Origin: a virus
Taxonomy: Duplodnaviria > Heunggongvirae > Uroviricota > Caudoviricetes
Strand: one strand, 5' to 3'
Length of the DNA: 64,000 nt
IMG/VR virus record: IMGVR_UViG_3300028833_000055
Location: 238,446 to 302,445 of that record
Shown here: piece by piece, positions 760 to 36,086 of the stretch
Layout: every line of letters begins with the position of its first letter
Numbering within the stretch: the first letter of the stretch is position 1
Made by a program: the position numbers and the translations under genes
The notes under the pieces: generated by a model
What the model saw: the letters and a program-made list of their open reading frames with translations, nothing else
What the model was told of the DNA's origin: nothing
Databases searched by the model: none

Positions 760-1094
760 AGTATTATGTTTTCATAAAACTCACGTGAAAGGGTGAGTTC
801 GTATCTTCTGTTACCATTTTCATCTTCAAGTATCCAGTAATAATCGAGGAAAGCGTTATTGTCCTCCACACCTATCAACTTGTATTCCTTATAGACCGGT
901 GTTCCGTTCAGTTCATAGAGGACGTTCCTTTTGTCAACCCATTTCTTGCCGATGTATTTTCTAAGGTTTTCAAGGATATGTCCCCAGTTCCCTTCATCGC
1001 TCTTGTGGGCTTCCGCCTCTTCGACCGTATAGAACCTCCATACGTCACCTTCCCTGCCGAATATACCTTTCTGCCTTATGTGTTCCATAATCAA
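756..1094 (-). CDS. Hypothetical phage protein
   Basis: 112 aa ORF tiled with 4-nt overlaps in the operon. Confidence 0.6.
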   Translation of the reverse strand: MIMEHIRQKGIFGREGDVWRFYTVEEAEAHKSDEGNWGHILENLRKYIGKKWVDKRNVLYELNGTPVYKEYKLIGVEDNNAFLDYYWILEDENGNRRYELTLSREFYENIIL

Positions 1095-1912
1095 ACCTTT
1101 TCAACAGTTATGACATTGCCGTCGTTTTTCGTCTGAAAGTTGAGACGCTTGATTTTCTTGATTTCACCGTTATATATTTCAACATCGACACCAAGTCCTT
1201 TCGTAGAGTCTCCCGTTTGTGAGGATATGAAATTGCCTATGGAATAGATTACGGTTTTTCCATTAATTTCATCTTCATCCTCAATGATGTGTGGATGAGA
1301 ACCGATAATCATATCTGCACCATACGATATGATTTTTTTCGCCAGCATTTCCTGCTCTCTCGTATGGACCTTTTCGTACTCTTTGCCCCAGTGCATAATA
1401 AATATAACAATTTTTGCACCGTCTTCACGAACTTTGTCAATGTCTTTTTTCATTGAATTGAAATCGTGTGCGTCATTGTACTTTACACCCTTGTCCTCTA
1501 TGTTCATTTCCGATGTATAATTTATTATGGCGGTTTCCCCGAGTATGACAGGTTCCGGCTTTGAATCGATTGAAACACCGGTATATGCGATTTCATTCGA
1601 TTCAAGGAATGAAATCGTTGACTTTACACCCTTCGCCCCCATATCACATATGTGGTTGTTCGCCAGCATAAAGCAGTTCACACCCGCCTTTATCAGAGAT
1701 GCACAAAATTCCTTCGGTGTCGAAAATTTCGGAAATCCGTTATATGGTCCGTCCGTCAGTACCGTTTCAAGGTTTCCAACCACATAGTCATATTTTGTAA
1801 ACAGTTCCTCCACGTTTGCAAACGACTTGTCAAAATTATAAGTGTCACCATACTTCATTTGGAAAAGCTGCTCGTCGTGACACATAAGGTCTCCTATAAA
1901 TAAAATTTTCAT
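1091..1912 (-). CDS. CapA/PGA_cap-family metallophosphoesterase
   Basis: Motifs FIGDLM, GNLET, LANNHICD, MHWGKEY, IIGSHPH, YSIGNFI. Confidence 0.85.
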   Translation of the reverse strand: MKILFIGDLMCHDEQLFQMKYGDTYNFDKSFANVEELFTKYDYVVGNLETVLTDGPYNGFPKFSTPKEFCASLIKAGVNCFMLANNHICDMGAKGVKSTISFLESNEIAYTGVSIDSKPEPVILGETAIINYTSEMNIEDKGVKYNDAHDFNSMKKDIDKVREDGAKIVIFIMHWGKEYEKVHTREQEMLAKKIISYGADMIIGSHPHIIEDEDEINGKTVIYSIGNFISSQTGDSTKGLGVDVEIYNGEIKKIKRLNFQTKNDGNVITVEKV

Positions 1913-3828
1913 CCCTTATACCATTTTATATTTTTCAAGTCAACCATACAGTTCAGGAAAGCATCGGTTGTGTTTTCAACATTTGGCAGTTTCCATTTCG
2001 AAACATCACCGGCGAATTTTGAATCCTTGAAGCAGTATCTCATATTTTTCACATTACTTACATTCCAGTTCGATATGTCACCGTTAAATACCGATTTTTC
2101 AAACATACTCGAAATGTGTGCCACTTTCAAAACGTTCCAGTTTGATATGTCATTGTTGAACTGACTGCCATAGAACATATGGTTCATAAAAATGCAACTG
2201 TTCGTCTTCCACTGTGAAATGTCACCGTTGAACGATGATTTCATAAACATTCCACTCATATAGACTGCATTTGAGACATTCCATCTTGAAATGTCTCCGT
2301 TGAAAACGGATTCTGCAAACATATAACTCATATCGTTTACTTTTTTAACATTCCATTCCGAAATGTCACCGTTGAATGTCGAATGTCTGAACATCGAATA
2401 CATAGTCTTCACATTCGATGTGTCCCATTGGGAGATGTCTCCGTTAAAGTCCGTGTCATAGAACAAGGCGGACATATCGGTCACACGACTTGTGTCTATA
2501 TGGTTAAGGTCTGCAAATCTTCCTCTCTTCCTTATTTCGTCATCAACGACCTTCTTTATGTTTTCATCGGTCGCTTTTATTCTGCCGCCATACGCTTCAT
2601 CCACGTTAACTTTTTTTTTATCGGGAATAGGTATGGGTTCAAACTTATTTACTTCCAAGAACTTCTTGATTTTGTCGAGTTCCATCATCTGGTCGGGGCC
2701 GATGTTGTATTTCAAGATATCTTCCCTTCCCTTGTCGTCCATCGCCGCAACATAGTTGTAACCGGTGAAATATCCGCTTTCCAACGCACCTCCGTACAAC
2801 TTGCAGTCCCTTACACCCCTCTTCATCCTCACTATCGACTTGAAGACGGTTTTATCTCCAAGGTCAGGACAGAGTTCCTTTATGTAATCATACAGTTCAC
2901 AGAAATCCATTTCATACAGATGGTATGTGATTATGGCCTTTATTGCAATGTTGAACAGAATGTTCGGTTTCGGATTCCTCACCTTGTTGAGCGAATTCCA
3001 CACGGCGAGACCCTCGTCATATGTATTCGCTTCGGGAAGACCGGAAACAAACAACCAGAGACCCGTCTGATATCCGTAGTATCTTCTTCCCACGTGTCCT
3101 TCTATTTCGTGCTGACAAAGACCTTCTATGTCTTCATTGGAGAAATGTGCCTCTGAACTCACCCTGACAATTCCTTCCGGTGTGACATTTACTCTCGGAA
3201 GCATTCCATCGACTATATCGACCTTGTATCCGTATCCGAGTTTGTCTATATATGCCTGGAATTTCTTGGCCGCCTGCTCGGGACCGATGTTTCTTACACC
3301 CGCCTTTACGACTTCATATGGGTGTTCCCTTATGATTTTGAGGGCGTATTCGTATTCATCCCTTGTCGGGAAAGAGCCTCCTCTATCGTGTGGGTTATCC
3401 GGTTTCTCGGGTTTTTCATCGTCCTCCGACATTTCATCGTGTTCCTCCTTCAACTCGATTGACGACAGAAAACCTTTTATTTTTTCTATGTAGAATTTCG
3501 ATATGTAGCTTGAAAAATTCTCAAACTTTGCAAGGAGTTCTTCAAGTTCAGACTTTATGTCAACATCGGTGTCAATCTTTTCCAGTTCAAGTTTTGGAAA
3601 ATATTTCTTTCCCACCCTTCTCGCCTTTATGAATTTCTTGAACTCCTCATCCGTGTTCATAACGTTTTTTGCACGGTATGTTGCACGGAAAAGGAGGGCG
3701 AGTTTTCCATATTTCTTGTCGAGTTCAAGCAGATATTCCTTGTCCTTCTTGTTCAGTTTGAAATACTTGTCTTCTTCTGTCTCCTTGTTCTCCCTTATAT
3801 ACTCATTGAATGAAGGTATTAGTCTCAT
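1909..3828 (-). CDS. DUF1704/MATCAP-like (QEGLA-motif) metallopeptidase fused to BspA/DUF285 repeats; N-terminal T4-like capsid-targeting-type leader
   Basis: HEIEGH (HExxxH) plus DEGLA; about six W(D/N)(T/V)SNVxxMxxMF repeats at C-terminus; N-terminus MRLIPSFNEYIRE. Confidence 0.75.
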   Translation of the reverse strand: MRLIPSFNEYIRENKETEEDKYFKLNKKDKEYLLELDKKYGKLALLFRATYRAKNVMNTDEEFKKFIKARRVGKKYFPKLELEKIDTDVDIKSELEELLAKFENFSSYISKFYIEKIKGFLSSIELKEEHDEMSEDDEKPEKPDNPHDRGGSFPTRDEYEYALKIIREHPYEVVKAGVRNIGPEQAAKKFQAYIDKLGYGYKVDIVDGMLPRVNVTPEGIVRVSSEAHFSNEDIEGLCQHEIEGHVGRRYYGYQTGLWLFVSGLPEANTYDEGLAVWNSLNKVRNPKPNILFNIAIKAIITYHLYEMDFCELYDYIKELCPDLGDKTVFKSIVRMKRGVRDCKLYGGALESGYFTGYNYVAAMDDKGREDILKYNIGPDQMMELDKIKKFLEVNKFEPIPIPDKKKVNVDEAYGGRIKATDENIKKVVDDEIRKRGRFADLNHIDTSRVTDMSALFYDTDFNGDISQWDTSNVKTMYSMFRHSTFNGDISEWNVKKVNDMSYMFAESVFNGDISRWNVSNAVYMSGMFMKSSFNGDISQWKTNSCIFMNHMFYGSQFNNDISNWNVLKVAHISSMFEKSVFNGDISNWNVSNVKNMRYCFKDSKFAGDVSKWKLPNVENTTDAFLNCMVDLKNIKWYKG

Positions 3829-4626: not shown

Positions 4627-4652
4627 AAAAAAGGGGTTTCTCACCCCTTTTT
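4627..4652 (-). terminator. Rho-independent terminator ending the NAD operon
   Basis: AAAAAAGGGG-tttctca-CCCCTTTT hairpin with flanking A/T tracts. Confidence 0.7.
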
Positions 4653-5778
4653 ATTTTTTTATCCAGTCATCACTTATATACGGACTCTCTTTGAATACGG
4701 CATCCACCGTCATTCCAGTTATCCACTTGATTACTCTTACATCACTGGTAGTCAGTTCCGTATCAGTCTGTAACATAATTCCGTTTATGTCAAGACAGTC
4801 CGGTGAAGGAAATTTACAAAGTCCTTTTTTGTGGAGTTTGCAACTGTGGTGTTCCTTATGGACGACCTTCAAGTCAAACGGAAGTTTCGAAATCAATTCG
4901 TAGTCTATATTTCCATTGTCGATTTCATTCTTGAAACTATGGCATACATCCTTGTTCGGACAACTTGCACAATCCATTTCGTTTGGTCTGTAATAGTGTG
5001 CGTTGTAATCCCTTCCGGTTTTCTGTGAATACGATATGGCACAGGATGTCTTCTTGAAAATAGGAACATTGTACTGCATCGAATGACACTTCAAGTTCCA
5101 TAGAATATCATTGCCGATATTCTTCTTCATACCGAAGTCGTAACCGTCATATGGTCTGAACGGAAGATTGTTCTCCCTTATGTATTCGGAGAGTGTGGCA
5201 TCCACTTGTAAACCCGAATATGCCACCGTTGTAGAGTATTTCTTGGCCAGAGTGAACAATCTGTCCATTGTCTCCGGAGAATCGTTTATATCCCTTATTA
5301 TCGGTCTGTATTCTATTCCATATGTGTATCCGTTCATTTCGGAAATGGATTTGCATACGGAAAGGTTCTCTTCAAGTCTCTCGAATGTCGCCGCTTCGTC
5401 ATACTTCCGGTTTCCGAAGAACGATAGGCCGAAATGTATGTTGAGTTTCCATTTTTTAGTAAAAATCTTTGAGAACATATCGTCCGACATAGGTCCTTTC
5501 GTTATAATGACCACCGGACCCCTGTGGTTTGACGACTCAAGTCTTTTGAGACATTCCAGAGTGTCTTCCATATACAGGAAAGGGTCCCCGTAGAATATGT
5601 TTATCACCACTGGGATTGTATTGAAGAGAGGGTTTATTTCAGAAGAAGGAGTAAGATATTCCTTTTCCTCATATTTCCCTCTCGCTCTGCAATAGGAACA
5701 CCCGAAACATTCCTTGTGCGGCCTACCCATACAGTAGAACGATTTCAGGAAATAATATTTTTCAAGTAAGTTTCCCAT
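4651..5778 (-). CDS. Radical-SAM-like Fe-S protein with atypical Cys spacing
   Basis: N-terminal C-x7-CxxCxYC; INIFYGDPF, VIITKG, YRPII core; extra C-terminal Cys clusters (CASC..KDVC, C..H..GLC....PDC). Confidence 0.55.
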   Translation of the reverse strand: MGNLLEKYYFLKSFYCMGRPHKECFGCSYCRARGKYEEKEYLTPSSEINPLFNTIPVVINIFYGDPFLYMEDTLECLKRLESSNHRGPVVIITKGPMSDDMFSKIFTKKWKLNIHFGLSFFGNRKYDEAATFERLEENLSVCKSISEMNGYTYGIEYRPIIRDINDSPETMDRLFTLAKKYSTTVAYSGLQVDATLSEYIRENNLPFRPYDGYDFGMKKNIGNDILWNLKCHSMQYNVPIFKKTSCAISYSQKTGRDYNAHYYRPNEMDCASCPNKDVCHSFKNEIDNGNIDYELISKLPFDLKVVHKEHHSCKLHKKGLCKFPSPDCLDINGIMLQTDTELTTSDVRVIKWITGMTVDAVFKESPYISDDWIKK

Positions 5779-5782
5779 CCGT

Positions 5783-6625
5783 CTAATGTACTACTATGAA
5801 GTTGTCGTATCCCTTTTCAGCGGCGACCTTGCTCCAATCACGATATGATTCAGTTGCATAAACCTTGTCGAAGTTCTTGCAAAGGTTGTCGAAACCGACT
5901 TCGTTGACGATGTGTGTGACTTTGATGTCGAACTGTGCTTCCGGATAGAGTTCCTTCATCACACTCAACTCACCGAGGAAAGTACCGCCGGCGTCACAAA
6001 GGTCATCATAGAAGAGGAAATGTTTACCGATTTTAATCTTGTCCTGATTTTTTAGGATGAAAGATTTGATTTTACCGGTCTCCAAATCACGTTCCTTTTC
6101 GAAGTAGATTTCCTCCGACTCCTTTCCGTCATATCTTGTCATTGCACCGTGGTCGGGAAAAACGACCTCGATTTTACTGTCAAAGTTGTCAAGAAGGAAA
6201 TGATAGGGGTTCATATCCAGTGAAACACATTCACGCATTTCGAGCATAGTCCTCACACTGTGGGCGGTATAGACATAACATTTCTCGTAACCCATCTGTG
6301 AAATCATCTTGGCGACGATACGGAGGGTGAACGGTCTTTCAAAAGACATCACACGGTCCATTCTCATACCCATCAGGTAATGGATGAAGAGAACCCAGTT
6401 GACACCCTGTCTGTCGAGAATGTCACCGATTTGCAAAAGGATAAACAATTCCTCTGCGTTCGTGATACGACAGTCAACGGTATAGTCCTCTTTACGGTCA
6501 AGCTCCTCCGTGAACACAAATTGTACTTCACCGTCGGGAAAACGGTCGATACGGTATTTCACTTCACTTTTTTCCAAAGAAATTAAATCAATTCTTTTCA
6601 TACTATTCCTGTTTTTCAAATACAA
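5783..6625 (-). CDS. prs: Ribose-phosphate pyrophosphokinase-like protein (Prs; candidate ADPR-PP synthetase)
   Basis: RFPDGE, YLMGMRMDR, VVFPDHGA, FEKER, DDLCDAGGTF PRPP-binding loop; 280 aa. Confidence 0.85.
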   Translation of the reverse strand: MYLKNRNSMKRIDLISLEKSEVKYRIDRFPDGEVQFVFTEELDRKEDYTVDCRITNAEELFILLQIGDILDRQGVNWVLFIHYLMGMRMDRVMSFERPFTLRIVAKMISQMGYEKCYVYTAHSVRTMLEMRECVSLDMNPYHFLLDNFDSKIEVVFPDHGAMTRYDGKESEEIYFEKERDLETGKIKSFILKNQDKIKIGKHFLFYDDLCDAGGTFLGELSVMKELYPEAQFDIKVTHIVNEVGFDNLCKNFDKVYATESYRDWSKVAAEKGYDNFIVVH

Positions 6626-7346
6626 GCATTTTGTTTTTAGCCACAGCCCTTCTGTGCATCCTTTCTATCTTACCGAGTTTTTCGTCGGTAGGAAGTTTTC
6701 CGTCAAGGAGATAGGAATCTATTTCGGCATATGAAACTCCGAGACTCTGTTCATCTGTCACATAACTTCCGTCTTCGTTTGTGTTCAGTCCGTCAATCGG
6801 GGTCTTGTGTACAAGATGATGGGGAAGTCCGAGAAAATCACCGATTTTAAGGATTTCTCTTACGGTCAGGTTTCCAAGAGGGGAAAAATCACCTGCGGCA
6901 TCTCCATGTTTTGTGCTGTACCCGACATAATCCTCACTTCTGTTGCAAGTGTTGGCTACACGTCCGTTGTTTGACTGGCTGATGGCGTAGAGTGTTGACA
7001 TACGGATTCTCGCCGGGAGATTTGTCAAGGACTGTTCGGACAAGTCGAAACCGATTGCATTCTTGACCGCTTCGACGGTCGGACCTATATTCACCGTATA
7101 GTTCTTGATACCGAGTAAGTTGCAGACTTCGATTGAGTCAGCAATGTCCTTCTGTTCCCCGTTTGGCATCATAACTCCGATTACACGGTCTTTGCCGAGA
7201 GCCGCCACACAAAGTGCTGCTACAACGGTGGAATCCTTTCCACCGCTTATTGCAACACAACAATTACAATCTGGTCCATTTTTTTCAAACCAATTACGAA
7301 TCCATTCGATGATGTCTGTTGTAAGTTTTATTGTATCCATAAACAT
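6603..7346 (-). CDS. nadE: NH3-dependent NAD+ synthetase
   Basis: AISGGKDS PP-loop, NLPARIRMSTLY, NTCNRSEDYVGYSTKHGD, DFSPLGNL; no glutaminase domain. Confidence 0.93.
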   Translation of the reverse strand: MFMDTIKLTTDIIEWIRNWFEKNGPDCNCCVAISGGKDSTVVAALCVAALGKDRVIGVMMPNGEQKDIADSIEVCNLLGIKNYTVNIGPTVEAVKNAIGFDLSEQSLTNLPARIRMSTLYAISQSNNGRVANTCNRSEDYVGYSTKHGDAAGDFSPLGNLTVREILKIGDFLGLPHHLVHKTPIDGLNTNEDGSYVTDEQSLGVSYAEIDSYLLDGKLPTDEKLGKIERMHRRAVAKNKMLVFEKQE

Positions 7347-7354
7347 TCCTCTTT

Positions 7355-8842
7355 TTAATTTTCCGATGCAAGTCTTTTACGAATTTCAGTGAACCTTTCG
7401 TAGTTGTACATTTTACCGTCTAGAAACACGAGTCTCATAGCGTTTTCGTGCTTTTTACCGTATTCACAGTATTCATCTTCATTAAATCCGTCGGTCGCCT
7501 TGAAACCGTCTTCGGTCTTCTCGACAAACACAAGACCTCTGTGAGATTTCTTCAGATGGTTGGTGTCGGTCTTCGGGTCCTTGTAAATCCGAACCTCCTT
7601 ACCATTAACAATGGCATAAGTTGCTTTGCAAGCACATCCGTACATGTCACGAGTGTTGACAATCAGTCTGTCGCCCTCGAATACGACCTTGAAGCAGAAT
7701 GCTCCGATACCGAACACCACATTGCTGGCGGCGAAACCCATTTCATCGAGTTTCTTCCAAATCTTACGGAGCTGCAACAATGTACATCCGTCCCCCCATA
7801 TAAGTCCGATGTGCGGGTCGAGAACCTTGTATCCTTTCGAATTTACGGTTCCGCCGAATACATCCCAGAACTTCTGTATCGTACCGACTGCGATTTCAAC
7901 CATATCTCCGCTGTCGGGTCTGATGAGGAGTTTTCCGTTGTGTTCAAGGATTTCCTTCTTGCAAGCGGGAACTATATTGTTGACAACATTCCAGTAGTCG
8001 TATGTGTCACCGAGAAAACTGAACGACTTGTCCTTGAAAGTGTCGGTGAGGAACTTTTTCAGAAGCGTCTCCTCGTCCACACCTATTCCGGCGTTGCAGG
8101 AAATAACCGAGTGTTCTGTGGAAATAGCACCGATACCGATGTGGTTGTATTCGGTGTGGGCGCTGTAATACTTGTCAATGTATGGAAGCGCCGGTATGGT
8201 AGATGTCTTGTTTGAAGAAAGCAGCCAAGCGGCGGCGGTCCTTGCAGAAACCTCAAGGCAGTCGTCACCTCTCATATCGAAGTTGGAGAAGGCGTTACGT
8301 GGGTCGAGGTTGTCGTCCGAGTTCTTGTCATACCAGTACTTTGCAAGACGGTAGTACATATTTCCTATTGTTGCGTCATTGCAGATTTTCCACAATTCCA
8401 CCTGAAGGAGACATTCAACCCACTGTACCAGCCAGGCGAAGTCCTTATGTGTGTTGATGAGTTCTATGCAGGGAATACCCATATTTACCTTGCTTCCTTC
8501 GGGAAGAGCCCTGATTTGAAGAGGGAGGTATCCGAGTTTGTGAAGTTTCACGATAGGTTCGATTTTGTAGAACCCGTCAAGCTGAACATCCATCGCACGC
8601 TCATAGGTCTCGATTATTTCCTTTTCGCTCTTCTCGAAGAAGTTTTTGTTGAAATAGTCGATGAGGTATTCCTGAATGAAGGCCTGAAGTCCGAACCACA
8701 CCATCTTCTGGTTCTCTTCCTTCTCAAAATAGCTTTTCCTTGGTACCCAGTATGAAACAAGGTGAGAGAGACCTTCGGGGTACATCATATTGTGGACAGT
8801 CTTGTATGTGTCACACAACAACATTGGATTCATATCCATCAT
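7355..8842 (-). CDS. NAMPT/NadV-fold phosphoribosyltransferase (probably nicotinate-specific; Namat-like)
   Basis: CDTYK..H, STEHSV, DTYD, LLIRPDSGD, GLIWGDG, TRD...KAT, KKSHRG; Ser at the position equivalent to NAMPT Asp219. Confidence 0.9.
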   Translation of the reverse strand: MMDMNPMLLCDTYKTVHNMMYPEGLSHLVSYWVPRKSYFEKEENQKMVWFGLQAFIQEYLIDYFNKNFFEKSEKEIIETYERAMDVQLDGFYKIEPIVKLHKLGYLPLQIRALPEGSKVNMGIPCIELINTHKDFAWLVQWVECLLQVELWKICNDATIGNMYYRLAKYWYDKNSDDNLDPRNAFSNFDMRGDDCLEVSARTAAAWLLSSNKTSTIPALPYIDKYYSAHTEYNHIGIGAISTEHSVISCNAGIGVDEETLLKKFLTDTFKDKSFSFLGDTYDYWNVVNNIVPACKKEILEHNGKLLIRPDSGDMVEIAVGTIQKFWDVFGGTVNSKGYKVLDPHIGLIWGDGCTLLQLRKIWKKLDEMGFAASNVVFGIGAFCFKVVFEGDRLIVNTRDMYGCACKATYAIVNGKEVRIYKDPKTDTNHLKKSHRGLVFVEKTEDGFKATDGFNEDEYCEYGKKHENAMRLVFLDGKMYNYERFTEIRKRLASEN

Positions 8843-8862
8843 AATTCTGAAAATTTAATTGG

Positions 8863-9375
8863 TTATTCTACTACGTTTACTTGACAGCTCTTCATAACTT
8901 CGAGAGCGGCGTTGTGCCTGATGAGTGTTGTACCCGAGCATCCGTTGGCGAGAACGGTAACTTTGAGTTCGGGAAAGATGGACTTGACCATAAGCACATT
9001 GGATACGATACAGATATCCGTACAAGTGCCTACAAAGACGGCCTCGTCACAATCTTCGAGTTCAAGAGTCCACCCTACATATCCGAATGTATCCTTAAAG
9101 ACCGTATTGCCGATGTTGGAGTATGGTTTCAGTTCATCCACTATCTCCCAGCCTTCCGTCTTATGGATGCAATGTTTCACCGGAAGGTTCTTCCCCTCCT
9201 GTGTGTCGAGATAATTCTCGAAGTGTGTGTCCTTTGTGAAAATGATTTTTGAATAATTTCCCGATTCGATTTCAGACTTGATAAACGGGATGGTTTTTAA
9301 TGCAGCCGGATTTGTGAGAGAACCCGTAACGAAGTCGTTCTGCATATCAACGACTATAAGTGCTTTGTTTGACAT
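8863..9375 (-). CDS. pncA: Nicotinamidase (isochorismatase family)
   Basis: ALIVVDMQNDFV.GSL, TKDTH, KHC, FKDTFG, VGTCTDICIVSN; start taken at MSNKAL. Confidence 0.9.
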   Translation of the reverse strand: MSNKALIVVDMQNDFVTGSLTNPAALKTIPFIKSEIESGNYSKIIFTKDTHFENYLDTQEGKNLPVKHCIHKTEGWEIVDELKPYSNIGNTVFKDTFGYVGWTLELEDCDEAVFVGTCTDICIVSNVLMVKSIFPELKVTVLANGCSGTTLIRHNAALEVMKSCQVNVVE

Positions 9376-9477
9376 AACTATATAAGTTTTGGTTATTACT
9401 AAGTAGTTTCGGAACATCATCCAGACCTTATGGCGGTAATATATACCGCCGGTCGGACTTATCTCCTTGTTACCAAT

Positions 9478-9828
9478 TTATTTATTCTTCTTGTGCCAGA
9501 ATTCTATGAATCCGTTTTTGCTCTGCTGTTCGAGAAGCGAAACATACGCCTTGAATGTTTCAAACGGTTCGTATGTGAACTCCATCTTTCCGGTCTTTCT
9601 GTCCATAATGGACGATACGACCATATTCGGGTTTCTCTTGTCGAGTGAAATCCAGTCGTTGGAGTTTCCACGATATGCACGTTTCCCTTTTCTTATGTGA
9701 GAGACGAACTCCTCTGCGGTTCTGAAATGATATTCGTTGAAGTGCTCGATGTCGTTTTTCTTCTCGTTCTTCAACATCTTTCTCACATTCTGTCTTGACT
9801 TTTCGTCCATCATTGAAAAAATATCCAT
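9478..9828 (-). CDS. Hypothetical early protein
   Basis: Directly downstream of the TATCTTTG box at about 9855; first gene of the NAD transcription unit. Confidence 0.6.
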   Translation of the reverse strand: MDIFSMMDEKSRQNVRKMLKNEKKNDIEHFNEYHFRTAEEFVSHIRKGKRAYRGNSNDWISLDKRNPNMVVSSIMDRKTGKMEFTYEPFETFKAYVSLLEQQSKNGFIEFWHKKNK

Positions 9829-28205: not shown

Positions 28206-29162
28206 ATGAGAATATTGATAACAGGATGTTGTGGTTTTATAGGATACCACTTGACATTAAAACTTTTGAAAGAGAACTATGATGTTGTCGGAATAGACAA
28301 TATGAATAACTATTATGATGTGTCGATGAAAAACCGAAGACTCGACCATTTATCTGAATATGGAAATTTTGTTTTTCATTTCGATGACATTTCACATTAT
28401 GGTTCAATTTCTTGTATATTTGAAAAAAACGATTTCGACATTGTTGTGAACCTCGCCGCCCAAGCCGGTGTTCGTTACAGTATAGAGAATCCATCGGTTT
28501 ATATACAAAGTAACTTGGTTGGATTTTCGAATATTTTGGAGTGTTGCCGGAATTATAATGTTAATAGATTGATTTACGCTTCATCATCAAGTGTGTACGG
28601 AAACAGTGATGATGTTCCGTTCAAAGAAAGTGCAAGAACTGACAGTCCGGTCAGTCTGTATGCCGCTACAAAGAAATCAAACGAAGTGTTGGCGGAATCA
28701 TATTCCACACTTTATGGAATACAATGTACGGGATTAAGGTTTTTCACAGTATATGGACCGGAGGGGAGACCGGATATGGCACCGTTTTTATTTACAAAGG
28801 CGATAGACGAAGGAAAACCAATCACAGTCTTCAATAACGGGAATATGCTGAGGGACTTTACTTATGTGGATGATATTGTAAACGGTATAGTCAAAATCAT
28901 TGAAAAGAAACTTGATTATAAACACGAGATATATAATATCGGCTGCTCTCATCCAGTTAAGCTGATGGATTTCATCAACGAGATTGAAAGGTGTCTCGGA
29001 AAAAAAGCGGAAATTGTTTTCAAGGAGATGCAGAAAGGTGATGTGGTAAAAACATATGCCGATACTACTAAACTTGAAAGAGACTTCGGATACAAACCAT
29101 CAACAAAATTGAGTGATGGTATAGAAAAATTTATAAAATGGTGGAAAGAGTATGGACAATAA
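28206..29162 (+). CDS. UDP-glucuronate 4-epimerase-like SDR enzyme
   Basis: ILITGCCGFIG, NLAAQAGVRYS, YASSSSVYG, YAATK, LRFFTVYGPEGRPDMA. Confidence 0.9.
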   Translation: MRILITGCCGFIGYHLTLKLLKENYDVVGIDNMNNYYDVSMKNRRLDHLSEYGNFVFHFDDISHYGSISCIFEKNDFDIVVNLAAQAGVRYSIENPSVYIQSNLVGFSNILECCRNYNVNRLIYASSSSVYGNSDDVPFKESARTDSPVSLYAATKKSNEVLAESYSTLYGIQCTGLRFFTVYGPEGRPDMAPFLFTKAIDEGKPITVFNNGNMLRDFTYVDDIVNGIVKIIEKKLDYKHEIYNIGCSHPVKLMDFINEIERCLGKKAEIVFKEMQKGDVVKTYADTTKLERDFGYKPSTKLSDGIEKFIKWWKEYGQ

Positions 29163-29949
29163 GATTGTAGTAAGTATGACGAGTTATCCGAAAAGGATAA
29201 ACAATGTAAGTAAGTCGATATTTCTTCTTTTGGAAAAACAAACGGTGAAACCGGATGAAATACATCTGTGGCTGAGTGTTGAGGAGTTTCCAAATAAAGA
29301 GAAGGATTTACCAAATGATTTGAATATAATTATTGATGGGAGTGAAAAAGTTTATCTTCATTGGTTGGAGAAAAATACATATGTACACAAGAGACACGAA
29401 ATATTCAAATTTATAGAAAATGCTTATGTGTTTCTTATCGACGATGATGTCAGATATGCAGACGACTTGATTGAAACGGTGATTAAGAAAGCAAAACAAT
29501 ATCCGAATACGATTGTGTGTTATAATAGATATGACCAACACAGATATTCCGGAAAGCGTATATTGTATGGTAATCCCATTTTAAAAAACTCACCACCAAC
29601 GGTGAACAAATATAGATGGTGTGGGCAGAGTATGATACCATCAAATATATATCCGAAAGAATGTTTGACGGATGAAAACCAAAATATAAGAAACAACACT
29701 TCACCCGTAAGTGACGAATGTTGGTTTCAACCTTGGATTGTCAAGAATGATATTCCAATTGTATATTGCAGTTACGGGTGGGGTGAGGACATTGACCCGA
29801 ACAATGGAAAGAACAAAGGTTTGGTTGCTTGGTCGCACCAAAAGGATGAGAACGGATACGAGAGAAGAGACATTTGGTTGAACAATGTACTCAAAGCATA
29901 TCCGGAAATAATGGAGAAATATATAAGATTGTTTAATTATGGAAAATAA
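29152..29949 (+). CDS. GT-A glycosyltransferase (paralogue 1)
   Basis: VVSMTSYPKRI...LIDDDVRY. Confidence 0.75.
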   Translation: MDNKIVVSMTSYPKRINNVSKSIFLLLEKQTVKPDEIHLWLSVEEFPNKEKDLPNDLNIIIDGSEKVYLHWLEKNTYVHKRHEIFKFIENAYVFLIDDDVRYADDLIETVIKKAKQYPNTIVCYNRYDQHRYSGKRILYGNPILKNSPPTVNKYRWCGQSMIPSNIYPKECLTDENQNIRNNTSPVSDECWFQPWIVKNDIPIVYCSYGWGEDIDPNNGKNKGLVAWSHQKDENGYERRDIWLNNVLKAYPEIMEKYIRLFNYGK

Positions 29950-30784
29950 GGAATGGATTGAATTTTGTGAAAAACAAATTCCAGAACTAAAAAACATCTA
30001 TAAAAAACAAACGGGAAAATATTTGGATTTATCAAATTGTAAAACTCTTACAGAGAAAATCCAATGGTTGAAAATCTATGATAGTAATCCATTGAAAATA
30101 AAATGCAGTGACAAAATACTTGTGAGGGAGTATTGTAAATCAAAATTGGGTGTTGATTTATTTATACCCATTATTGGTGTTTGGAATAGTTTTGATGAAA
30201 TTGATTTCAAGAAACTTCCAAACGATTATGTGTTGAAAACAAATCACGGTTCTCATACAAACATAATAGTTAAAAACAATAACATCAACAAAACAATTAC
30301 TAAAAAGAAATTCAATGAGTGGTTGTCTAAGGATTGGAGTTGGTGGGGTAAAGAGATGGCATATTATCCAATAAAAAGAAAGATATTTGCAGAACAATTT
30401 GTAAAGGATAAAAACAAAGGTGAGTTGACGGATTACAAATTCTTGTGTTTTAATGGAGAACCGAAATATTGCCAAGTCATAAGTAACAGAGGTGAAAAAT
30501 CATTCCATCTCAATTACTATGATATGGACTTTAAGTTTGTAGATATATCTAGAACAGATGTTCAAAACGATAAAAACTCAATAGATTCTGTACCGAAATC
30601 ATTTGAAAAAATGAAAGAATATGCAAGGATACTTGCACAAGATTTCAATTTTGTTCGTGTTGATTTCTATGAGATAAACGACAAACCATACTTGAGTGAA
30701 TTGACATTTTTTCCAGCAGCTGGTTTTCAACAATATAAAAATCCAGAAACCGATTTGTTACTAGGTAATATGTTAAAACTATGA
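29939..30784 (+). CDS. TupA-like ATP-grasp protein
   Basis: EKIQWLK, DKILVREY, LPNDYVLKTNHGS, DYKFLCFNGEP, FVRVDFY, SELTFFP. Confidence 0.85.
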   Translation: MENKEWIEFCEKQIPELKNIYKKQTGKYLDLSNCKTLTEKIQWLKIYDSNPLKIKCSDKILVREYCKSKLGVDLFIPIIGVWNSFDEIDFKKLPNDYVLKTNHGSHTNIIVKNNNINKTITKKKFNEWLSKDWSWWGKEMAYYPIKRKIFAEQFVKDKNKGELTDYKFLCFNGEPKYCQVISNRGEKSFHLNYYDMDFKFVDISRTDVQNDKNSIDSVPKSFEKMKEYARILAQDFNFVRVDFYEINDKPYLSELTFFPAAGFQQYKNPETDLLLGNMLKL

Positions 30785-31432
30785 TACTTTTGTATTATTA
30801 TTGTTATAACTTATTTCACTATATTGTTTTCCATCATCGTTATTTTTAAACAACTCTTTATATTTAGTAAAAATATTAAATGCTAATTCTACATTGTTTT
30901 TTACTAAATTTGTTATATATATTTTTGTGTAATCGTTTTCATATTTTTTAAGATATTCATAATCTGACATCATATTCACAATAACAATCAAAGGATATTT
31001 TTGTATATTTTGATTGATTATGTATTCCATTTGAATATGCTTGGGTTTATCAATATCCCAACTACTACCTGAAATAAAAATTGGTTTATCGTTTAATTGT
31101 AAGCGGGAATTATATTTTTCAATTATATAATTTCTTATATCACAATAATAAACATTATTATTTTTCTTTAAAACTTCTTTTTGTTCTTTATCTTCAACAT
31201 AATGTTCATAAAAAACACGAACATTATTGTCTATAATGAGATAATATTTTTCCTTTTCATTGTGTTTTTTTAATATAAAATTATTAAAATTTATATTTCT
31301 ATAGTTTTTTATTAAGAAACCAAATGAAACATAATCTATTATGTTCCAACAGAATGGGTTTATATATGGTTGTTTCAATATATCAAATGTTATATTTGAT
31401 GAAACACAAGAATTACCTATTATATTAAACAT
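30779..31432 (-). CDS. Polysaccharide-associated protein (DUF1919-like)
   Basis: IIGNSC...INPF N-terminus; very low GC; inside the glycosylation cluster. Confidence 0.4.
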   Translation of the reverse strand: MFNIIGNSCVSSNITFDILKQPYINPFCWNIIDYVSFGFLIKNYRNINFNNFILKKHNEKEKYYLIIDNNVRVFYEHYVEDKEQKEVLKKNNNVYYCDIRNYIIEKYNSRLQLNDKPIFISGSSWDIDKPKHIQMEYIINQNIQKYPLIVIVNMMSDYEYLKKYENDYTKIYITNLVKNNVELAFNIFTKYKELFKNNDDGKQYSEISYNNNNTKVS

Positions 31433-31438
31433 ATTAAA

Positions 31439-32131
31439 TCAAATTTTTATATTTTTAGAAATAAATTCAAATTCTTTTTGTCTACATACCTTACTTTTTT
31501 TCTTAATTTCATTATGTAGTGGTTGTTCTTCGTCATGAAATGCATATATGTTTCTCCAATTTTCTTTAACGATAATCGCTTTATATAGTTTCATCTTTTC
31601 TTTTAAAGATGTATAGTAGTCATCATCTTGATTGGTATATTCTAAAATTTTATTTGTTAAACACTTTAATCCATATTCCTTAAAAACATATGGTGGATAT
31701 AAAGTCGCCGCTCCACCAGTGTGATAAACACCACTTTTTTTCTTTTCTCCCCACATGGATACAAAACAGTCCTTATTTTTTACCCACACGTCATAAAACT
31801 CTTGTGCATAATTTTTCAAATATATACAATCATCATCTGCACTTATAACAGGGACATCACGGTATTTGTCCATAGTGAACAACACTTTCTTAAACGCTTT
31901 GTAATTTTTATATACCCAAAGGATTTCAATCAAATCATTGTCAGCAAATAATATCAGTTCTTCAGGAAGTTCTTTTTCTTTCTTTGGAAATTCTTCTTCA
32001 CTCAAGACCAATACGATATGAAAACCCGGACACATTTTTATCAGACTATATAAAGTTTTACCGACAGTTTTTATTCTTGCCTTCCAACTTGTGAGACTGA
32101 TTACCGCTTTTTCTCCATTATATTGTTTCAT
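31439..32131 (-). CDS. GT-A glycosyltransferase (paralogue 2)
   Basis: VISLTSWKARI...ISADDDCIY. Confidence 0.75.
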   Translation of the reverse strand: MKQYNGEKAVISLTSWKARIKTVGKTLYSLIKMCPGFHIVLVLSEEEFPKKEKELPEELILFADNDLIEILWVYKNYKAFKKVLFTMDKYRDVPVISADDDCIYLKNYAQEFYDVWVKNKDCFVSMWGEKKKSGVYHTGGAATLYPPYVFKEYGLKCLTNKILEYTNQDDDYYTSLKEKMKLYKAIIVKENWRNIYAFHDEEQPLHNEIKKKSKVCRQKEFEFISKNIKI

Positions 32132-32136
32132 TGTTG

Positions 32137-33363
32137 TTATATTTTTCTTCCGTATATTATAATGCCATCATATTTGATGTCTTTGATTTTCTTAAATTCT
32201 TTCCATTCCGTTATCAACAATGTCGCTTTGGTTTCATCCATACAGTCTTCAATACCATTGCAATATTCAACAACATCTCCTATTCTTCTTTTACATTCGT
32301 TCATTGCAATGGGGTCGTATACCTTCACTTTACAACCGTCTTTCAATAATAAATCAATAACAACCAACGATGGTGCTTCTCTCATATCATCAGTCTCCGG
32401 TTTAAATGAAAGACCGAGTATTCCGATGACTTTACCTTTCAAGTCACCGAGTTCTTTTTTTAATTTCAGATACGGTGTTGTCTTTTGGTATTCGTTTACG
32501 GATTCAACGGATTTTATTACTTTCATTTCATATCCGTTTTGTTCTCCGAGTTTAATCAACGCCTTGACATCTTTTGGAAAACAACTTCCACCATATCCAC
32601 AACCGGGATTGAGGAACTTGTTTCCAATTCTGCTGTCGCTTCCCATACCGAGTTTTACAGATTCAACATTTGCACCAACAAGTTCACAAAGATTTGATAT
32701 GTCATTCATAAAAGATATTCTTGTCGCCAACATACTGTTTGATGCATATTTTGTCATTTCGGCACTTGGGGTGTCCATAACAATAACATTATCGAAATCT
32801 TTATATAATTCCAACATAATGTCGGTACTTCTGTTATCGTTTGAACCGATAACAACTCTGTCCGGATTCATAAAATCATTTACAGCGTCACCTTCCTTTA
32901 AAAATTCGGGATTGCTGACAACGGAGAACTCTATATCAAGTCCTCTTTTGCTTAATTCGGTTTCTATTGCAGACCTTACCATTTCGGCCGTACCAACAGG
33001 AACAGTTGATTTTGTAGCAAATATTGTATATTTATCTATCATCTTACCGAACATACTTGCAACAGATAACACATATTTCAAATCTGCACTACCATCCTCA
33101 TTAGGTGGTGTACCAACAGCACAGAAAACAATATCACTATCTTTTATACTATCAAATTCTGTTGAGAAATGCAATCTGCAATTCTTTTTGTTTTTTGATA
33201 TAAGTTCTGAGAGACCATTTTCATAAATTGGTATGATACCGTTATTGAGATTGTTTATTTTTTCTTCAAGAATGTCTATACAAGTCACATCATTACCCAT
33301 TTCCGAAAAACAAGTTCCAGAAACAAGACCAACATATCCGGTACCGATTATTGAAATTTTCAT
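32137..33363 (-). CDS. ugd: UDP-glucose 6-dehydrogenase
   Basis: IIGTGYVGL, SNPEFLKEG, KYASN, GYGGSCFPKD, GLSFKPETDDMRE. Confidence 0.93.
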   Translation of the reverse strand: MKISIIGTGYVGLVSGTCFSEMGNDVTCIDILEEKINNLNNGIIPIYENGLSELISKNKKNCRLHFSTEFDSIKDSDIVFCAVGTPPNEDGSADLKYVLSVASMFGKMIDKYTIFATKSTVPVGTAEMVRSAIETELSKRGLDIEFSVVSNPEFLKEGDAVNDFMNPDRVVIGSNDNRSTDIMLELYKDFDNVIVMDTPSAEMTKYASNSMLATRISFMNDISNLCELVGANVESVKLGMGSDSRIGNKFLNPGCGYGGSCFPKDVKALIKLGEQNGYEMKVIKSVESVNEYQKTTPYLKLKKELGDLKGKVIGILGLSFKPETDDMREAPSLVVIDLLLKDGCKVKVYDPIAMNECKRRIGDVVEYCNGIEDCMDETKATLLITEWKEFKKIKDIKYDGIIIYGRKI

Positions 33364-34520: not shown

Positions 34521-36086
34521 TTATCCCTGAACAGAGGAGAGAACCTTGTCTATCGGAGCATATCTCTCGGAGTCAAGGGTTTCCTTGAGTATCAACCACG
34601 GGTCGGTCTTTCCCGACATAACCATCTTGGCTATGTTTACAGAGAAACCGGATACGAGGGCGACACCGAGTTCGTTCTCCTTCACGGGTATGGTGTCGGT
34701 TCTTGAATTGACATTCCAGAACACCAGTCTAGGCATCTTGTAACCTGCCGATTCGTATCTCTCCGAAATGGTGTCGAAAAGGGTCTTCATAGTGGAGAAG
34801 TAATTCCTTTCGTATGCACAAGTCGTAGCGCTGTCGAACTCCATATCGGAGATTATGAGAATCCTTTCGGGCAGGTCCGACTGCTCCATCTGGTTCTTCA
34901 AGGCGGTTTCGAGAAGAAGCATAAACACCTTCTCTATGTCCGTGTTGGAACAGTCGTTGTACTGGTCAACCAAAGCAATCTTGTCTGCAAGAGTGTTGCA
35001 TCCACTGATGTCTATGAAGTGAGGGTTGCTCGAGAACTCGATGAACTTGTTCTTGAACTCGCCTTCACACCTTTCGGCGAAATATACCGAAAGAGAGCGT
35101 GATACATCGATAGCCCATACTTCGTTTGCACCCTTGATTGAGGTTGCCATAGAACCGGAGCCGTCACATACGACCATAGTGTTTCCACCGCAGTCGATGT
35201 CCTTCAGGTTCATCCACATCGCTTCAAGGGAGTTGTTCATATTCACCTTTCTGTTCCAGTAGTTTACTCCATTGAGGTGGGTATACTTAGCCCATATCTC
35301 ATAAGGATAGAGTACGGATGCGTTCATCTTGGCGCTACCGTCTCCTCTCATCACGGCTTCAAGATACTTTTCGTAACGATATCCGTCGTGCTTTGCAAAT
35401 GCGTCCTTGTAGCGGAGGTTAGCCCTCGACGGAACGGTTTCGTAGTTTATCTTCTCCCACTCGTTTGCACAGGTGAATCTCTCTACGACACCGATGTGCT
35501 TACGAAGTCTTGAAAGCATCTTGCGGTATTCCTTGTTCGAAATTCCAAGGTGTCTCTTCAAGTCCATAGCGAGATGACGGACTGAATCCGAAGCGTTTAT
35601 GGAAGGCATCCACTTTGCAAGAAGGGAAATCGGCTTGTTGGCGGTGCAGTTTTCAATGTCTTCCCTCAACTGCTTCTCCACTACTTCGTAGCACACCTTC
35701 TTCAACTCCGGTATGTTTGCACATTCGATAATGTCGAAGATGTCCTTCCAGCGGCCGTATTCGGCGATGAGCGAAACCATCTTGGTTGCTTCATTCGGAT
35801 GACGCTGCATAAAGCGTACGAAAAATTCCGTGAATGCTCTCTTTTCACCGAGACCTTCCCTTACGTCACGGAGGAAGAACAACCACTTTATAGCATAGGA
35901 CAGATTTCTTTCCATAGCCCTGTCAAACGCCATAAGCGAGTCCGTCGGTACACCTCCACGGAATGAAGGTACCTTGAAGTTAAGGTCAACGAGTTCGTTC
36001 TTTGTGGTAGAATAACCGATTGCACCGTTTTCTGTTTCCTGTAGAGAGTTTATCCTCTCAATCTCATTTCTAAATTCGTCCATCAT
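34521..36086 (-). CDS. DUF2828 protein (TROVE/Ro60-like helical domain plus vWA)
   Basis: TENGA, LFFLRDVR.GLGE, EYGRWKD, LLAKWMPS, CDGSGSM (MIDAS), ISDMEFD, FWNV, LVSGFS. Confidence 0.85.
   Translation of the reverse strand: MMDEFRNEIERINSLQETENGAIGYSTTKNELVDLNFKVPSFRGGVPTDSLMAFDRAMERNLSYAIKWLFFLRDVREGLGEKRAFTEFFVRFMQRHPNEATKMVSLIAEYGRWKDIFDIIECANIPELKKVCYEVVEKQLREDIENCTANKPISLLAKWMPSINASDSVRHLAMDLKRHLGISNKEYRKMLSRLRKHIGVVERFTCANEWEKINYETVPSRANLRYKDAFAKHDGYRYEKYLEAVMRGDGSAKMNASVLYPYEIWAKYTHLNGVNYWNRKVNMNNSLEAMWMNLKDIDCGGNTMVVCDGSGSMATSIKGANEVWAIDVSRSLSVYFAERCEGEFKNKFIEFSSNPHFIDISGCNTLADKIALVDQYNDCSNTDIEKVFMLLLETALKNQMEQSDLPERILIISDMEFDSATTCAYERNYFSTMKTLFDTISERYESAGYKMPRLVFWNVNSRTDTIPVKENELGVALVSGFSVNIAKMVMSGKTDPWLILKETLDSERYAPIDKVLSSVQG

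Follow-up and report, generated by a model that had tools for sequence, protein, structure and literature searches.

To our knowledge, depletion of nicotinamide adenine dinucleotide (NAD+) is among the commonest strategies that bacteria use against phages, and three phage pathways that counter it are known. The NAD+ reconstitution pathway NARP1, carried by phages Bas63, SPbetaL1, ICP1 and Fado, consists of the kinase Adps and the transferase Namat (Osterman et al. bioRxiv 10.1101/2024.02.11.579819; structures in PMC12774641 and PMC13586617); NARP2 combines Nampt with Nmnat, as in KVP40, and NARP3 combines PnuC with NadR (PMC13464706). Our study concerns a cassette of four minus-strand genes, encoding a nicotinamidase, a Namat-like transferase, the NAD+ synthetase NadE and an Adps-like kinase, at positions 5783-9420 of a 64,000-nucleotide stretch of viral DNA (hereafter the window; positions 238,446 to 302,445 of IMG/VR record IMGVR_UViG_3300028833_000055). 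The window comes from a 363,334-bp jumbo gut phage genome, judged to be 96% complete. Judging from its sequence, the cassette probably encodes a deamidated variant of NARP1.

In the route that we favour, NAD+-cleaving host defences would leave ADP-ribose (ADPR) and nicotinamide. The nicotinamidase would convert nicotinamide to nicotinic acid, and the Adps-family kinase would pyrophosphorylate ADPR to ADP-ribose pyrophosphate (ADPR-PP). The Namat-clade transferase, in which the amide-binding Asp is lost and pocket Ser residues are gained, would then join nicotinic acid to ADPR-PP, giving nicotinic acid adenine dinucleotide (NaAD, or deamido-NAD), and NadE would amidate NaAD to NAD+, with no adenylyltransferase required. 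We infer all of these substrates and products, and the anti-defence role, from gene identities, conserved catalytic residues, clade memberships, pocket substitutions and an exclusive linkage to PncA and NadE, all of which are established.

The cassette resembles NARP1 in that an Adps-clade kinase and a Namat-clade transferase with conserved catalytic cores lie in one operon, no adenylyltransferase is present, and the presumed input is the ADPR left by NADases. It differs in the transferase pocket, which has Ser/Ser/Ser in place of Namat His187/Asp215/Ala242 (Namat residues are numbered as in SPbetaL1 throughout), in an adenine clamp motif that carries a 9-residue hairpin, in having nicotinamidase and NadE as obligatory partners, with the NadE gene placed between those of the transferase and Adps, and in its predicted intermediate, NaAD, whereas NARP1 makes NAD+ directly. 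NARP2 and NARP3 are likewise phage NAD+ restoration modules, but both require an adenylyltransferase, absent from this genome, and the KVP40 NadV clade does not include the window transferase. The Preiss-Handler pathway (PncA, PncB, NadD, NadE) shares the initial deamidation of nicotinamide and the final amidation of NaAD by NadE, and Bacillus phage G encodes the complete set (gp275/277/281/283), with a true PncB-type NAPRT, its own NadD and no Adps. The window instead has a Namat-type transferase and Adps, with no PncB-type NAPRT and no NadD; a tblastn comparison of phage G PncB with the window transferase gave no match.

The nearest relatives are four-gene cassettes of gut phages and Clostridia (e.g. 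Phass-1, OQ749652; loci L005-L167), which have PncA, transferase and NadE of the same lineages and the same pocket signature, with 44-64% identity for the transferase and up to 68% for NadE. Their order is PncA-Adps-transferase-NadE with a dedicated Adps clade (support 99/97), whereas the window and a 194-kb viral contig, L269, have PncA-transferase-NadE-Adps with an Adps of the crAss/Lak-phage type. The original prediction, made from the window alone, knew of no description of such a route as an anti-defence pathway, and none was found in the literature that we searched. Nicotinamidase, NadE and nicotinic acid go unmentioned in this context in the NARP1/NARP2 preprint, the aRES/Adpp preprint, the RyR preprint, the NARP3 paper and two structure papers; full-text searches (NaAD, ADPR-PP, NadE and related terms) returned no description of a nicotinate route, and the Phass-1 cassette is annotated gene by gene without comment on a pathway.

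The cassette and its flanking enzymes

The four genes run head to tail on the minus strand. The first encodes the PncA-type nicotinamidase, of isochorismatase fold (8863-9420; open reading frame of 185 amino acids (aa), with its likely true start at M16, position 9375). It is followed by the Namat-clade ADP-ribose/phosphoribosyl transferase, a candidate nicotinate ADP-ribose transferase (7355-8842; 495 aa), the single-domain, NH3-dependent NAD+ synthetase NadE (6603-7346; 247 aa) and the Adps-family, PRPS-like pyrophosphokinase of the crAss/Lak-phage lineage (5783-6625; 280 aa, or 272 aa from the likely start at ATG 6601). By direct reading of the sequence the junctions measure 20, 8 and 1 nt, the last if the kinase gene starts at ATG 6601, directly past the NadE stop and with AGGAA upstream. 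With such junctions and family matches for all four proteins, the single tight minus-strand unit of the original prediction stands, and the end assigned to it, 9375, is the second Met (M16) of the nicotinamidase frame, where homology begins.

The absence of an adenylyltransferase, first noticed in the window, extends to the whole genome: six-frame searches of its 363,334 bp with PF01467 and TIGR00482 found no nicotinamide mononucleotide (NMN) or nicotinic acid mononucleotide (NaMN) adenylyltransferase, and the controls were positive in 14/14 genomes. The genome also contains a small, stand-alone Nudix hydrolase (142-aa frame, at G000:C1:345098-345355), which is not fused to an adenylyltransferase.

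The nicotinamidase matches the Pfam family Isochorismatase (E 1.6e-19), and its best solved relatives include the Pyrococcus horikoshii pyrazinamidase/nicotinamidase 1ilw. Its catalytic residues D25/K109/C137 and metal ligands D64/H66/H83, which we take to correspond to D10/K94/C133 and D52/H54/H71 of the P. horikoshii enzyme, are at least 95% conserved among 113 unique cassette homologues. Since it scores far under the cut-off of the NCBIfam PncA equivalog (NF008623, 30 bits versus 174), it is a divergent member of the PncA family. NadE matches PF02540 (NAD_synthase, E 1.8e-50) and exceeds the cut-off of TIGR00552 (163 bits versus 63.65); the SGGxDS ATP loop (S34-G-G-K-D-S39) is present and conserved, and the protein has no glutaminase domain.

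The pyridine pocket of the transferase and its genomic partners

The transferase belongs to the Nampt-like fold, with family matches to NAPRTase and NAMPT_N, to NF006629 (411 bits) and to phrog_448 (E 1e-149). Its closest solved relatives in phmmer searches are SPbetaL1 Namat (9w5w/9w5x, E 1e-104), Haemophilus ducreyi NadV (1e-92) and human NAMPT (1e-46). An AlphaFold (AF2) model built on 35 relatives reached a predicted local distance difference test score (pLDDT) of 94.3, and its top Foldseek match is again Namat (template modelling (TM) score 0.91, root-mean-square deviation (rmsd) 1.7 A). In a tree rooted with the KVP40-type Nampt, which prefers phosphoribosyl pyrophosphate (PRPP), the Adps-associated transferases, including those of ICP1 and other classic Namat, form a clade with 100/100 support, separate from the Nampt of KVP40, avDM9 and CcrBL9; the window transferase lies inside this Namat-like clade, in a 'Ser-type' subclade that is itself supported at 100/100.

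The Nampt-like catalytic core is kept (D11, Y13, F188, R191, H244, R308, D310, R398 and D399, all invariant in the 35 relatives), the core of SPbetaL1 Namat being Asp13, Tyr15, Phe189, Arg192, the catalytic His, Arg306, Asp308 and Arg399/Asp400. The nicotinamide pocket of Namat is formed by Phe189, Arg192, Asp215, Ala242, Arg306, Asp13' and Tyr15'; Asp215 hydrogen-bonds the nicotinamide amide, and its replacement by Ala lowers activity about 8-fold (PMC12774641). In the window transferase this amide-binding Asp is absent: S214 stands at the Asp215 position, S241 at that of Ala242 and S186 at that of the conserved His187, and every cassette-linked homologue has either Ser or Ala at the Asp215 position. 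The Asp215Ser change is the equivalent of D219S in human NAMPT, which is listed as a substrate-affinity switch, Asp219 being said to define substrate specificity (PMC4919578 Table 2, PMC7096376). The remodelled pocket predicts that nicotinic acid, and not nicotinamide, is the base used.

The pocket was then set against gene neighbourhood in 76 viral loci fetched with the window transferase, 80 loci from bacterial assemblies, 80 further classic viral loci and 80 loci around relatives of the window Prs-like gene; these relatives were found by an alignment-based search, a single-sequence locus search with the Prs-like protein having returned none. Ser or Ala occupies the Asp215 position in 66 viral and 80 bacterial-assembly loci, in Phass-1 and in L269 (about 148 in total), and all of these transferases share a Ser in place of Ala242 and a small residue in place of His187. 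A nicotinamidase and/or NadE gene adjoins in each of these loci where the contig flanks suffice. Classic pockets are found in about 155 loci (10 + 80 with His-Asp-Ala, and 65 of the crAss type with His-Glu-Ala and a readable clamp motif), nearly all of them adjoining a Prs-like gene, and none of the approximately 155 has a nicotinamidase or NadE gene nearby. Because the same gene set recurs in about 148 loci, the gene linkage is far beyond chance. These observations, a Ser pocket found only beside nicotinamidase and/or NadE together with an Adps-clade kinase and no adenylyltransferase, lend support to the deamidating route put forward in the original prediction.

The same observations bear on a simpler explanation, in which the locus is an ordinary NARP1 that makes NAD+ from nicotinamide and ADPR-PP, and PncA and NadE are independent auxiliaries, with PncA perhaps removing excess nicotinamide and NadE perhaps pulling de novo synthesis in the host. 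Both clade memberships, Adps and Namat, are what this explanation expects, and NadE does occur alone in other phages, such as cyanophages. We nevertheless consider it quite improbable. It leaves unexplained why no linked transferase has the amide-binding Asp, whereas all unlinked ones retain an Asp or Glu there, and D215A lowers the activity of Namat about 8-fold. Moreover, PncA would be removing the very base that a Namat working on nicotinamide needs as its substrate.

Many of the Ala-type cassettes (L112, L115, L117, L119-L121, L141 and other genome_contigs loci, from Lachnospiraceae and Ruminococcus assemblies) consist of PncA-Adps-transferase with no NadE within 6 kb, and presumably use the chromosomal nadE. 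The closest transferase of all (64% identity) lies on L088 (JBGVNW010000068.1). This contig, at 360,293 bp about as long as the phage genome studied here, was assigned to the metagenome-assembled genome of a 'Bacilli bacterium' but may come from a related jumbo phage.

The origin of the kinase and the ribosyl donor

The Prs-like protein matches phrog_619 (E 1e-48) and scores 66 bits against TIGR01251 (canonical Prs), below the cut-off of 113. The reference for comparison was ICP1 Adps (ORF228 from NC_015157), for which ADPR-PP synthesis has been shown by structures and liquid chromatography-mass spectrometry (PMC13586617). F18, R87, H121, D161, the catalytic K185 and the acceptor residues Asp212/213/216 are kept, and the PP loop reads DDLCDAGGTF, with the Adps-type Cys215 and Phe221, compared with DDICDGAASF in ICP1 and DDMIDTGGTL in E. 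coli. The C-terminal alpha11-alpha12 helices of PRPS are absent (272-280 aa versus 315 aa in E. coli Prs), the alignment stopping before the Prs C-terminus. In a tree with nine canonical Prs, the cassette-linked proteins and ICP1 Adps form a 100/100 clade apart from the canonical enzymes.

Within the Adps clade, the proteins of the other four-gene cassettes form a subclade of their own (99/97) and the window protein is not among them: it groups with crAss-like and Lak-phage genes in another subclade (100/99), its sister being MT836666 (52% identity). All other fetched members of this crAss/Lak subclade with a readable partner are paired with a classic Namat that has the His-Glu-Ala pocket, the transferase gene coming first and Adps second, and PncA and NadE are absent beside all of them. 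In tblastx comparisons with the closest cassette relatives, homology is limited to 6699-9384, that is, to PncA, transferase and NadE, and no second Prs-like gene was found in the phage genome. Since its Adps falls in the crAss/Lak subclade while the homology of its relatives stops at the other three genes, the window cassette is a chimera of a nicotinate-type PncA-transferase-NadE block and a classic-lineage Adps, brought in by xenologous replacement, a mixed ancestry that the original prediction had not noticed. The chimeric order recurs in just one other phage contig, L269, with 56-72% identity, and this swap of Adps across lineages, seen a second time there, suggests that the ADPR-PP-forming step is the same, or interchangeable, in classic and nicotinate cassettes. 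The window cassette contributes, in sum, a Ser variant that copies the D219S switch, a replaced Adps and a rearranged order, confirmed in a second contig. In L269 a 315-aa gene (5312-6259 of that contig) with treble-clef zinc-finger (DUF4379) and DUF723 domains separates the transferase gene from that of NadE. Its product looks like a mobile endonuclease and was rejected as a pathway enzyme.

The main rival of the deamidating route is a phage-boosted Preiss-Handler salvage, in which the Prs-like protein would make PRPP, the transferase NaMN, the host NadD NaAD and the phage NadE NAD+. The pocket changes, which favour nicotinate, are silent on the ribosyl donor. This salvage is unlikely in our view, as the Prs-like protein groups with Adps, well away from canonical Prs, and does not reach the Prs family cut-off, its lineage is otherwise paired only with classic-pocket Namat, and SPbetaL1 Adps gave no measurable product in the canonical Prs reaction, yet acted on ADPR. 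A cassette making NaMN would also be redundant in the bacteria that carry it, because the five cassette-bearing genomes sampled already encode canonical Prs and NadD (5/5) and, in 4/5, a true PncB; moreover, phage G, a real user of the NaMN route, has PncB and its own NadD but no Adps.

The adenine 'selectivity clamp' of the transferase is retained only in part. The rule for the clamp loop (Arg, Lys or Tyr at the third residue) is satisfied, Tyr38-Phe39 being aligned with Arg40. The clamp helix motif of Namat (11 residues, aromatic at positions 3 and 7), which runs uninterrupted over 13 residues in the classic-pocket transferases with a single exception (11 residues), is here split by a 9-residue insert, V386-I394, modelled as a beta-hairpin (pLDDT about 88). 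The window motif thus reads G-A-F-C-F-K, the insert, then V-N-T-R-D, with the Phe of position 3 kept and Val at position 7. In Phass-1, the earliest branch of the nicotinate type, the pocket changes coexist with an intact Namat clamp motif, which speaks against the NaMN route. Because it branches earliest and combines these two states, the pocket change must have preceded the hairpin insertion and is independent of it. An independent origin of the pocket in Phass-1 is not required by the tree.

Several points weigh against the deamidating route as we have drawn it. With the clamp motif interrupted and Val at position 7, a preference for ADPR-PP over PRPP cannot be assumed. Classic Namat itself retains the use of PRPP in vitro (PMC12774641), and the host NadD is ubiquitous, hence the NaMN route is chemically possible. 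D219A in human NAMPT, the Ala counterpart of D219S, is listed as a loss of activity. A single branch (support 73/93) sets all nicotinate-type transferases apart, and the covariation of pocket and neighbours is for this reason essentially one ancient evolutionary event retained over deep divergence, and not many independent ones. The route spends one ATP more than NARP1. The purpose of the cassette could alternatively be a general supply of NAD+, since the phage also encodes NAD-dependent sugar-nucleotide enzymes. Lastly, the closest solved relatives of the window NadE are the NH3-dependent NadE 2e18 and, second best, 3fiu (Francisella tularensis NadE, E 3e-31), which we take to be the structure of the Francisella NMN synthetase.

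This last relationship raises the prospect of a Francisella-type route, in which the transferase would make NaMN, the NadE homologue would amidate it to NMN and a host NMN adenylyltransferase would complete NAD+; a homologue of the 3fiu protein, where it is paired with NadM, has the role of NMN synthetase (PMC3376133). Such a route is very improbable here: the phage genome has no NadM/NMNAT, the short NadE of archaea, a member of this subfamily, is a genuine NaAD synthetase without NMN synthetase activity, and the top NCBIfam/TIGRFAM matches of the window NadE are to NAD synthase.

Returning to the deamidating route, the extra ATP that it costs may reflect the gut habitat. We infer that gut anaerobes salvage via nicotinic acid and that the free pyridine left after NAD+ cleavage would be largely nicotinate, the phage PncA capturing the rest. 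It is also conceivable, as a speculation, that NaAD escapes NADases. Genes for Macro (Adpp-type phosphatase) and NADAR proteins, partners of some related cassettes, are both missing from this genome.

Surroundings and meaning of the cassette

Downstream of the kinase, after a gap of 4 nt from its stop, lies a divergent radical-SAM/DUF1848-SPL-like gene (4651-5778, minus strand, 375 aa), whose product bears the motif CFGCSYC at its N-terminal end. The gene probably shares a transcript with the NAD cassette. We ruled it out as a fifth member of the pathway, as it is radical-SAM/SPL-like and has no homologue in any related locus. The minus-strand unit is likely closed by the strong, GC-rich hairpin found in the terminator scan at 4628-4652, which is flanked by A and T runs and likely acts as a bidirectional terminator. 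On the other side of the cassette, an inverted repeat with perfect 7-bp stems and a 5-nt loop (9432-9450, minus strand), read directly from the sequence, lies after the upstream gene has ended (stop at 9478-9480) and before the nicotinamidase gene starts; it lacks a following T-run and is therefore no canonical terminator. Apart from the hairpin at 4628-4652, the promoter and terminator scan of the window did no better than shuffled sequence, and Rfam and tRNA scans of the window gave no matches. A DNA-level search of the phage collection returned short patches only and no close isolate.

Elsewhere in the window, a low-GC island of sugar-nucleotide and polysaccharide genes, with NAD-using enzymes among their products, at 28206-33363 (26-35% versus about 42%) encodes an NAD-dependent epimerase/dehydratase, a GT2 glycosyltransferase, a TupA-like ATP-grasp protein and a UDP-glucose/GDP-mannose dehydrogenase. 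The minus strand at 1091-3828 encodes a 639-aa protein with DUF285/PARCEL surface repeats and a MATCAP/QEGLA-type metallopeptidase-like region, then a PGA_cap (CapA-like) metallophosphoesterase, and at 34521-36086 a 521-aa protein with DUF2828 and DUF7788 domains.

Taking the related loci together, we lean, with somewhat less assurance than for the route in the window itself, towards a fourth phage NAD+ reconstitution pathway, built on a nicotinate ADP-ribose transferase (nicotinic acid + ADPR-PP to NaAD) with PncA and NadE at its sides, occurring widely among gut phages and gut bacteria, and with an ADPR-PP step modular enough to be swapped. The chimeric cassette of the window is a natural domain-swap experiment, which argues for an ADPR-PP intermediate in both types of cassette. 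The three-residue signature (His/Asp/Ala versus small/Ser-or-Ala/Ser) separates the two types and could be used for annotation and for mutational tests. If the proposal is correct, the nicotinate-based route adds a new reaction, the direct synthesis of NaAD from ADPR-PP, and the current labels of such operons, 'plain NARP1' or 'NAMPT + Prs', would need correcting; the constant presence of a nicotinamidase and NadE beside a NARP1-like pair, in hundreds of loci from gut phages and Clostridia, would likewise have an explanation.

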